A stretch of DNA of 64,000 nucleotides. It comes from Thermomicrobiales bacterium. GTDB lineage: Bacteria; Chloroflexota; Chloroflexia; Thermomicrobiales; UBA6265. This document shows positions 42,969-44,453 of this stretch, piece by piece. The stretch lies in assembly GCA_049841275.1 (NCBI GenBank), contig JASGDN010000047.1, positions 95,057 through 159,056 on the forward strand, written 5' to 3'. The notes beneath the pieces were generated by a model. That model was not told where the DNA came from and searched no databases. It worked only from the letters and a program-made list of their open reading frames with translations. The stretch's first letter is position 1, and every line of letters begins with the position of its first letter. The translations under genes and the position numbers were made by a program.

Positions 42969-44453
42969 ATGACGACGGAATCCCTGGTGACGAGTGCGAT
43001 GGAGGGCGATGCGGAGGCATTCGGCCAGTTGGTGACCCGGTATCAGGGGATGGCGTTCAGCTACGCGCTGGCAACCACGCGCGACTACCACTTGGCCGAG
43101 GATGCAACCCAGCAGGCGATGATCGTGGCTTATCGCAATCTCGCGGCGCTTCGCGATCCGCGCCGGTTCGGCGGCTGGCTGCGGGGAATCGTGCGGTTCG
43201 AGAGCCTGCGGATACTTCGCGATCGCGATCGCACGGATTCCCTCGATGGGGACGAGTCGCGCGAACCTATCGATGCGGCTGTCGATCTGGAGCGCCAGGC
43301 GGAGGTCGCGGTCGAGTTCGAGCGTGTGTCTGCGCTCATGGCGCAGTTGCCCGAGCGCCAGCGGGTCGTCGCCCAGCTCTACTACCTTGGCGATCGGTCG
43401 CAGGCGGCGGTCGCCGAGTTTCTGGGGCTTTCCGTCAGTGCTGTCAACAACCGCCTGCGTGAGGCGCGGTCCATCCTGCGCCAGGAAGGAGCTCACATCA
43501 TGAGCGATACACCTATCAATACCCCGGACTTCGCGGCGAGCGTTGGGAAGGTCATCCAGGCAGGCGGCGTGACGATCGATGCACGGATGGAGCGGAGTTC
43601 GCTGCCGCCGCTCCTGACTGCGGTCGAGATCGGGGACCGGGACCGGTCCGTGACGGCATTCGTGGCCCAGTACCTGAACGATGATGTGGCACGGCTGGTC
43701 GCGATCGATAGCGAACCGGGTGAGGTGGCTGGAGGGATGGCGGTGCGAAGCCGCCAGCGGGTCACCGACTTCCGGGCGTCCGACGCGGTGATTCAGCGGC
43801 TTGTCGCCATGTCGCGGCCGGCCGCCGAGCCGGTGGGGATCGAGACAGGCATCAAGGTGATCGACCTCTTCGCGCCGCTGGTCGATGGGGGGACGGTGGC
43901 GGTGGTCGGGGCGCGCAATGTCGGGAAGATCGTGGTGGTGCAGGAACTCGCGCGGCGTCTGACCGCAAGCGGCCAGCGGGCCACCATCCTCGTGTTCGTC
44001 CAGTCGCCCGATGAGCTTGGTGCGATTCACCAACTCGATGTCCGGATCGATGGCACGGTGACGGTGGTGGCCGTGCCGGTCGCCGATGCCTCCCCGGATG
44101 TCCTCGCCAGTGGGTTGCAGCAGGTCGATACCGTGCTCGCCATGTCGCGAGAACTTGGTGTCGAGCAGATGTATCCGGCGATCGATCCGCTGATGTCGCG
44201 CTCGATTGCGGTGGAAGTCCCCGCCCTCGTGGAGCGGGCGAGGGAGGCGCTGCGCACGCATCCGGGAGACGGGCGGATGCGTCTGTTGCGCGCCTACCTG
44301 ACGCAGCCGTTCTTCGTCGCTGAGCCGTATACGGGGCGCCCCGGCGTGTCCGTCGATGCGGGAGTGGCGGCTGCGGATGTGGCGCGCATCCTGGATGGCG
44401 ATGTGTCGGGCCTGACGGTCGACGGCGTGATGATGGGCGCATCGTTGGCATAG
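42969..44453 (+). CDS. ECF (group IV) sigma-70 factor fused in-frame to a degenerate F1-ATPase beta-subunit-like domain
   Basis: ATG 42969 follows AAGGAGG. Residues 1-175 carry sigma regions 2 and 4. Residues 178-494 align block-wise with AtpD ('IETGIKVIDLFAP', 'YPAIDPL', 'QPFFVAEPYTG') but have a degenerate P-loop 'GARNVGKI' and lack the central catalytic segment. Confidence 0.8.
   Translation: MTTESLVTSAMEGDAEAFGQLVTRYQGMAFSYALATTRDYHLAEDATQQAMIVAYRNLAALRDPRRFGGWLRGIVRFESLRILRDRDRTDSLDGDESREPIDAAVDLERQAEVAVEFERVSALMAQLPERQRVVAQLYYLGDRSQAAVAEFLGLSVSAVNNRLREARSILRQEGAHIMSDTPINTPDFAASVGKVIQAGGVTIDARMERSSLPPLLTAVEIGDRDRSVTAFVAQYLNDDVARLVAIDSEPGEVAGGMAVRSRQRVTDFRASDAVIQRLVAMSRPAAEPVGIETGIKVIDLFAPLVDGGTVAVVGARNVGKIVVVQELARRLTASGQRATILVFVQSPDELGAIHQLDVRIDGTVTVVAVPVADASPDVLASGLQQVDTVLAMSRELGVEQMYPAIDPLMSRSIAVEVPALVERAREALRTHPGDGRMRLLRAYLTQPFFVAEPYTGRPGVSVDAGVAAADVARILDGDVSGLTVDGVMMGASLA

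Follow-up and report, generated by a model that had tools for sequence, protein, structure and literature searches.

An old family of ECF sigma factors fused to an F1-ATPase beta-like domain, with a conserved candidate translation start at the domain junction

Sigma factors of the extracytoplasmic function (ECF) type that contain regulatory domains of their own are regarded as the 'one-component systems' among sigma factors, and few of their extension types are understood. Casas-Pastor et al. (2021, PMC7826278) described 19 groups of ECF sigma factors with C-terminal extensions, and the types named in the main text of that paper include SnoaL-like, TPR, Cys-rich, DUF1835 and transmembrane extensions. 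Here, we analyze a gene located at positions 42969-44453 of the forward strand in a 64,000-nucleotide stretch of DNA from a Thermomicrobiales bacterium (contig JASGDN010000047.1; this whole stretch is called the window below), which encodes an ECF sigma factor fused to a domain resembling the beta subunit of F1-ATPase. Like ECF41, ECF42, ECF56 and ECF238 of PMC7826278, the window gene combines a sigma2-sigma4 core with a group-conserved C-terminal domain of more than 50 amino acids (aa) and, like the extension groups generally, it has no conserved adjoining anti-sigma gene, the extension being presumed to replace the anti-sigma factor. It differs from these groups in that its extension is an F1-ATPase beta-like pseudo-enzyme, whereas no ATPase-like type appears in the main text of PMC7826278, and in that its family has a conserved internal start codon at the domain junction, which is reported for none of these groups. 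Neither this main text nor the reviews searched mention an ATPase-like, FliM, ankyrin or tRNA-synthetase extension of an ECF sigma factor.

Two other kinds of systems are close to this locus. In translationally coupled sigma/anti-sigma operons of the ATGA type, as in the window gene, a Shine-Dalgarno sequence (SD) lies in the 3' end of the sigma gene and the start of the partner follows a few nucleotides (nt) downstream. Unlike the sigma gene of a coupled pair, that of the window has no in-frame stop and its frame continues into the partner, so that a covalent fusion is also made; the stop/start layout of coupled pairs occurs in a single relative, the contig L146 described below. The second kind is in-frame internal initiation giving C-terminal isoforms, of which ClpB-80, IF2-beta and CheA-S are bacterial examples. 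In-frame internal starts have also been mapped genome-wide in bacteria by Ribo-RET (bioRxiv 10.1101/520783). As in the known cases, an in-frame SD and start codon of the window gene stand at a domain boundary and the shorter protein would be the C-terminal part; these cases are experimentally supported, whereas the window site is known from sequence alone. In the literature searched, we found no report of an internal start that separates sigma from its extension in a sigma factor gene.

Our analysis indicates that the fusion is an old one, present in two phyla, and that selection at the nucleotide level preserves both an SD and a start codon at the junction of the two domains. We consider it fairly probable that this single open reading frame (ORF) gives two products, the 494-aa sigma-beta fusion and a free 317-aa beta-like protein. 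If so, one ORF would encode a tethered and a free regulator, a design undescribed for sigma factors that would alter the annotation and study of such fusions. An extension derived from ATP synthase beta as a pseudo-enzyme, found in two phyla, would likewise be a new type, and hints at sensing of nucleotides or of ATP synthase partners.

A sigma factor joined to a degenerate F1 beta-like domain

Translation of the ORF begins with ATG 42969, which follows a perfect SD read directly from the sequence (TAAGGAGGT, 42953-42961), and ends at the stop codon 44451-44453; all features given here lie on the forward strand. The 494-aa product is a 100% match to P0001, an NCBI-annotated protein of a Thermomicrobiales metagenome-assembled genome (MAG) that was deposited independently. 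Sigma-70 region 2 occupies residues 21-89 (43029-43235; Pfam PF04542, E = 1.9e-10) and region 4, of the Sigma70_r4_2 type, residues 118-168 (43320-43472; PF08281, E = 6.2e-11), the last sigma helix spanning residues 156-172 in the AlphaFold2 model. Over residues 16-173, the NCBIfam model TIGR02937 (sigma70-ECF) scores 83.6 bits for a cut-off of 42.9. Regions 2 and 4 are thus above their cut-offs while regions 1.1 and 3 are absent, as expected of ECF (group 4) sigma-70 factors. The nearest NCBIfam subfamily, TIGR02989, reaches 74 bits, below its cut-off of 124.6.

The remainder of the reading frame (43500-44453), 317 aa long if begun at Met178, is beta-like according to matches with TIGR01039, Foldseek and phmmer. 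Pfam and NCBIfam yield a weak but clear match to ATP-synt_ab/AtpD in this part. It is not recognized as AtpD: after residue 178, the equivalog model TIGR01039 (atpD) gives only about 84-87 bits (87.5 bits for the beta-like frame) for a cut-off of 462.85. The AlphaFold2 model is confident, with a predicted local distance difference test score (pLDDT) of 85.9, and its top Foldseek matches in the PDB are F1 beta subunits (E = 4e-20), which are also the best PDB matches by sequence. As in F1Fo AtpD, a beta-barrel, a P-loop domain and C-terminal helices follow each other in the same order, and the motifs GIKVIDL, YPAIDPL and QPFFVAE...G are retained and invariant in the family. Unlike AtpD, the domain is fused to sigma and lies outside any atp operon, its Walker A motif is degenerate, and it has lost about 95 residues of the core as well as, in the clade of the window gene, DELSEED. 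These losses were located by mapping the domain with phmmer on a solved F1 beta structure. Query residues 104-163 and 187-244 correspond to beta residues 135-194 and 313-369, respectively, so that query 163-187 replaces beta 194-313 of the catalytic core, a stretch that holds the catalytic Glu segment and Walker B in canonical F1 beta; further on, query 244-259 replaces beta 369-412, and with it the DELSEED region.

Alignment to relatives places the degenerate Walker A, GARNVGKI for GGAGVGKT, at 43908-43931; the Chloroflexota clade has preserved its Lys, but the Methylomirabilota clade, which reads GEYRAGT, has not. Another conserved motif, TQPFFVAEPYTGRPG (44301-44345), is common to true F1 beta, aligns to F1 beta residues 412-458 and comprises QPFFVAE...G, in which Q446, P447, F448, A451, E452 and G459 are invariant (alignments A1 and A3). 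In F1 beta, QPFFVAE...G lines the adenine pocket, so that binding of a nucleotide without hydrolysis is conceivable. With its N-terminal beta-barrel, degenerate P-loop and C-terminal QPFFVAE motif, the domain is by all appearances a pseudo-enzyme, a catalytically dead relic of F1 beta and not an AtpD. Pfam detected no known anti-sigma domain in the beta-like part. Predicted template modelling scores of 0.62-0.65 for the window protein and a second member mean that the packing of the two domains against each other is not confident.

A search with the 317-aa C-terminal part as a query retrieved about 60 fused proteins of 493-553 aa, with sigma regions 2 and 4 followed by ATP-synt_ab and identity down to 27%. 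Scanning one genome per species yielded 60 loci, some 50 of them with the beta-like fusion and mostly with one continuous ORF through the junction, and a further 80 metagenome loci have the same arrangement, with an in-frame junction ATG in 80/80 and no new non-ATG case. All carriers found are uncultured; they belong to the Thermomicrobiales, the Chloroflexia, other Chloroflexota and the Methylomirabilota (Rokubacteria), besides single MAGs labelled as other phyla. The extension is in frame and conserved in about 60 protein clusters and more than 130 loci, and at 317 aa is well within the definition of an ECF C-terminal extension (more than 50 aa). Members from the Chloroflexota and the Methylomirabilota share only 27-35% identity in the beta-like part, and the distribution indicates that the fusion is old, neither recent nor an artefact of assembly.

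The junction as a candidate internal start

In the window gene, the junction carries the SD-like motif GGAAGGAG (43484-43491), which encodes Gln-Glu-Gly-Ala with the rare codons GAA and GGA. An 8-nt spacer, ctcacatc (43492-43499), separates it from ATG 43500-43502, the in-frame codon of Met178 and proposed internal translation start, which is kept as a start codon in relatives. Residues 178-188 (43500-43532) form a probably flexible linker with pLDDT below 50, and the same holds for a Methylomirabilota member; both AlphaFold2 models show the junction Met as the first residue of a low-confidence coil that connects the last sigma4 helix to the beta-barrel, and give this Met no structural role. 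The original prediction, made from the window sequence, had placed an SD, an 8-nt spacer and ATG 43500 (Met178) exactly where sigma gives way to the beta-like part, and had noted that the sigma frame is that of the ATG and reads through. Direct reading and the Pfam and NCBIfam matches bear out both points, the TGA at 43501-43503 being out of frame. Two further claims fared less well. To call the SD near-ideal was too generous, as its predicted pairing of -6.3 to -8.0 kcal/mol is equalled by about 3% of internal ATGs. The 'ATGA' of the junction had also been likened to the start/stop overlap of coupled genes; this is not general, since most relatives read ATGG, with no consistent out-of-frame stop, and the ATGA is therefore irrelevant and its TGA has been assigned no function.

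For the window sequence alone, the combination of SD and ATG is within chance. The pattern AAGGAG-N5-10-ATG occurs five times in the window for 1.56 expected, a count reached by 2 of 100 shuffles; two of the five matches are real gene starts (3068 and 42969, the latter being that of the sigma-beta gene) and two look like chance occurrences. It is by comparison with relatives, and not from the window itself, that the junction site exceeds chance.

Of 63 fused proteins, 54 have Met at the junction, 7 Val, 1 Leu and 1 Ile. For the non-Met cases with available DNA, the codon is GTG (L003, L035, L062 and L063), TTG (L064) or, in L065, ATC with GTG as the very next codon, while in the genes with a non-Met junction GTG makes up 36-67% of Val codons and TTG 2-29% of Leu codons. 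Overall, 112 of 112 distinct sequences have a start codon at the junction (106 ATG, 5 GTG and 1 TTG). As for the SD, GGAGG or AGGAG is found 17 to 5 nt upstream of 66% of junctions versus 3.0% of 50,244 other in-frame positions of the same genes, and an SD core of at least 4 nt precedes 82% of junctions versus 10% of other in-frame positions. Across the family, the spacing between motif and start codon stays at 8-10 nt, and the motif is encoded by differing peptides (QEGA, TKGA, REGG, KEGD, RGGL, KQGG, KRRT and KGGL); in close relatives, AAGGAG persists despite amino acid changes (E to K, A to V). When the in-frame ATG and GTG codons of each gene are ranked as SD-start pairs, the junction comes first in 23 of 49 loci and is one of the top two in 33 of 49.

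Codon choice points in the same direction. At the SD site, AGG accounts for 41% of Arg codons (4% elsewhere), GGA for 71% of Gly codons (15% elsewhere) and GAA for 79% of Glu codons (28% elsewhere). In 43 distinct Methylomirabilota sequences reading LKRR, the first Arg is CGG (39) or AGG (4) and the second AGG (40) or AGA (3); CGC, which encodes 44% of Arg elsewhere in the same genes, occurs 0 times at these two codons. The two codons that follow LKRR vary freely, for example ACG/ACC/ACA/ACT and CTG/TTG/CTC. Because the Arg codons are restricted while their neighbors vary, the pattern indicates that purifying selection acts on GGAGG at synonymous sites. The surroundings are also unusual. Of the seven-codon windows at 484 aligned positions, the nine with the lowest GC content at third codon positions (GC3) are all located between codons -6 and +10 relative to the junction. 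Predicted mRNA folding in 60-nt windows is weakest, over the whole gene, at codons -2 to +9, where it lies 6.8-8 kcal/mol above the mean of the gene. The junction window is in the more weakly folding half of its gene's windows in 46 of 48 loci, and in the weakest tenth in 27 of 48.

One product or two

The junction bears the signature of internal initiation, namely a conserved start codon, an upstream SD at proper spacing and a weakly structured region. The original prediction had listed dual expression, a recent fusion and an assembly indel as scenarios that fit; the start codon and SD, conserved at the junction in about 130 loci together with a low GC3 and weakly structured mRNA, favor the first of these. 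It is favored too by a natural variant, L146:28-1625, in which a 35-nt insertion after LKR throws sigma (183 aa) out of frame. The 3' end of this sigma gene, TGATGA, overlaps with ATGATG, at which a separate gene for a 352-aa beta-like protein starts with the very same junction Met, behind the SD GAAAGGAGG. L146 is the only true split among the standalone-looking cases, and its arrangement suggests that the junction site can act as a gene start and that the two halves can exist as separate proteins.

We infer that initiation takes place at Met178, and propose the following scheme. These old, conserved ECF-type sigma factors carry their dead F1-ATPase beta relic as a C-terminal extension, and the mRNA of the flexible linker would hold a conserved internal initiation region, with an SD-like motif 8-10 nt before an ATG (in a few cases GTG or TTG), set in a locally AT-rich and weakly folded stretch. 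Ribosomes would make the fusion from ATG 42969 and the free beta-like protein from ATG 43500. A search within the gene found no sigma-70-type promoter upstream of the junction, so that the free protein would come from internal initiation on the same mRNA. By analogy with ECF C-terminal extensions and sigma/anti-sigma pairs, the proposed function of the beta-like domain is control of the sigma part; the free copy might act in trans, by competing, by oligomerizing or by buffering a ligand or partner, and so set a threshold.

The main rival is that the gene encodes a plain fusion, with the full-length product only, whose Met belongs to a functional linker and whose stretch of purines, rare codons and high AT content owes its conservation to something else, such as ribosome slowing for co-translational folding or a K/R/E/G-rich end of sigma region 4. 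Several observations weigh on its side and against two products. The junction Met is part of a linker motif, M-x-x-D-x-L...LPDDF, that is conserved at the protein level and common to sister sigma factors with unrelated C-terminal domains, so a protein-level reason for its conservation is possible; a rare-codon, AT-rich stretch at a domain boundary could likewise serve co-translational folding. The sister locus L053 has ACG, not a start codon, at the junction, and SDs are weak in family members L009, L029 and L042. Internal SD and ATG pairs of this strength are not rare in the genome: the 48 high-GC3 ORFs of the window contain 276 internal in-frame ATGs, and 9 of these equal or beat the predicted anti-SD pairing of the junction, which ranks only 10th of 41 in-frame ATG and GTG codons of its own gene. 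The loci are also phylogenetically related, so that the counts given above overstate the number of independent observations. Finally, an energy-based shuffle of synonymous codons gave p = 0.9 for the window peptide RQEGAHI. This test is uninformative in the clade of the window gene because QEG gives an SD-like string with any codons (the common CAG GAG GGC gives an even stronger AGGAGG); it is informative in the KRR-type clade (p = 0.0004-0.04), and tests of codon usage and motif enrichment replaced it for the analysis of the junction. What a plain fusion leaves unexplained is that every replacement of Met is GTG or TTG, that Arg codons are limited to CGG/AGG and AGG/AGA next to codons that drift, and that the distance from motif to start is constant. 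In addition, it is precisely at this site that a gene starts in L146, and AlphaFold2 offers no structural reason for the Met. We therefore regard a plain fusion as a serious but rather doubtful alternative.

The other explanations are much less probable. An indel near the 3' end of sigma, from assembly or sequencing, might mask two translationally coupled genes, as L146 is truly two-gene with an ATGATGA overlap and MAG assemblies do contain indels (L013, L035, L041 and L044 are frameshifted). However, comparison of the junction in related genomes, proposed with the original prediction, showed it to be in frame in more than 130 loci and some 60 protein clusters, drawn from numerous studies and sequencing platforms, in fact in nearly all loci with a complete gene; the frameshifts of the odd loci are located elsewhere in the gene, and the window protein is identical to one deposited independently. 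The indel is thus very improbable. A recent fusion, in which SD and ATG are decaying relics of a once-separate downstream gene, would account for the resemblance to the second-gene start of a sigma/anti-sigma operon, and L146 indicates that split and fused states are interconvertible. Yet the fusion is present in two phyla, at the low beta-like identity reported above, and flanking synonymous sites have turned over while SD and start codon, which would have decayed as relics, have not; we hold this reading to be only slightly less improbable than the indel. Both were rejected because the in-frame junction is common to relatives in the Chloroflexota and the Methylomirabilota. Lastly, programmed frameshifting or termination-reinitiation at the ATGA could release sigma alone, through the out-of-frame TGA, and a re-initiated beta-like protein, with the SD as a stimulator. 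SD-like elements are known stimulators of frameshifting in prfB and dnaX, and the ATG of the window gene is spanned by TCA TGA in the +1 frame. Against this, there is no slippery sequence near the junction, and the A after the ATG, hence the TGA, is absent from most relatives. This mechanism is as improbable as the indel.

Sister sigma factors, neighboring genes and unusual loci

The sigma part belongs to a larger ECF clade, recognizable by the linker TVNNRL-H/R-x-AR-x-x-LK...M (TVNNRLHxARxxLKxRMxxM...), which was not found in the ECF literature searched. Among the 93 closest of its 50%-identity representatives (360-760 aa), the C-terminal domain is beta-like in 35, ankyrin in 9, bifunctional-nuclease, FliM and HEAT in 4 each, T2SSF in 3, and FliG_C, TPR and Rho_RNA_bind in 2 each; T2SSE (GspE/PilB), PCMT, GNAT and BNR also occur. 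To these, genome loci add the catalytic core of the phenylalanyl-tRNA synthetase (PheRS) alpha subunit (L054 and L058, and L056 by sequence similarity), GNAT (L051) and a T2SSF/GspF/PilC-like domain (L048, and L052 by sequence similarity). Examples of such sister genes are L054:5593-6885, L048:5413-6891 and L051:5319-6515, out of clade loci L047-L058 with proteins P0121-P0265. In eight of the 12 sister loci (L047, L048, L051, L052, L054, L055, L056 and L058), the junction consists of (A/G)A(A/G) or CGG followed by AGG ATG nnn nnn ATG, with Arg always as AGG.

It is tempting to view each gene of this clade as a self-contained sigma/anti-sigma module, both fused and free, in which, behind a common linker with a conserved internal start, a borrowed machine subunit (F1 beta, FliM, FliG, PilB/GspE, PilC/GspF, Rho RNA-binding or PheRS alpha; also ankyrin, HEAT or GNAT) serves as a bait or decoy that reports the assembly state of the machine, or an attack by toxin, antibiotic or phage, and turns it into a transcriptional response. 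This idea is speculative and we think it unlikely to be correct; PADLOC models for anti-phage defence gave no match, and thus no support for a defence role. The clade, with its many borrowed domains of machine subunits, would offer a testable entry into possible transcriptional monitoring of core machines by bacteria.

Directly upstream of the sigma-beta gene, on the same strand and after a gap of 186 nt, lies an hrcA-grpE-dnaK heat-shock cluster (38988-42782), whose genes were identified by eye from hallmark sequences. The same order, hrcA-grpE-dnaK followed by sigma-beta, occurs in L001 and L003, with proteins about 50-63% identical overall to that of the window, and this conserved order hints at a link to the heat-shock operon. 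All-against-all clustering of neighboring ORFs from 61 loci revealed no conserved neighbor or anti-sigma gene, no family being present in more than eight loci, and no atp genes conserved near any of the 61 loci; nor is the window gene in an atp operon with gamma and epsilon. A GC-rich inverted repeat, GGACAGGGCAACGGCGGGCGGGAGCAATCCTGTCCGCCGTT (44489-44530), is located 36 nt past the stop codon and was not called by the terminator scan because it has no T-run. It is followed by a sigma-70-like promoter match (44555-44584) before the next gene, an ORF of 378 aa (44583-45719) with an Arg-rich, signal-like N-terminus and a repeated ATPGATPATPG stretch. This ORF looks like a putative secreted substrate-binding protein and is not conserved beside the family elsewhere.

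Some loci depart from the usual gene structure. Two apparently standalone beta-like proteins, P0055 and P0052, were rejected as such, being cut by contig ends. P0021, from a Joint Genome Institute (JGI) contig, was rejected as evidence for two genes on account of a premature in-frame stop inside sigma: its sigma is cut to an ORF of 153 aa with region 2 only, and, after a further 108 nt, the beta-like ORF resumes in the same frame with the junction Met. Either this sigma is pseudogenized and the beta-like gene has survived, or the sequence contains an error. In L013, L035, L041 and L044, the gene is frameshifted at one or more points that do not coincide with the junction. Some of these MAGs have 'MFD' isolate names, and the frameshifts are probably assembly errors and not biology. 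In L024:5593-7818 and the related L098, the ORF runs for 573 aa beyond the NNRL motif and becomes Arg/Ala-rich and of low complexity after a YPAIDL motif, probably through a frameshift into GC-rich non-coding frames.

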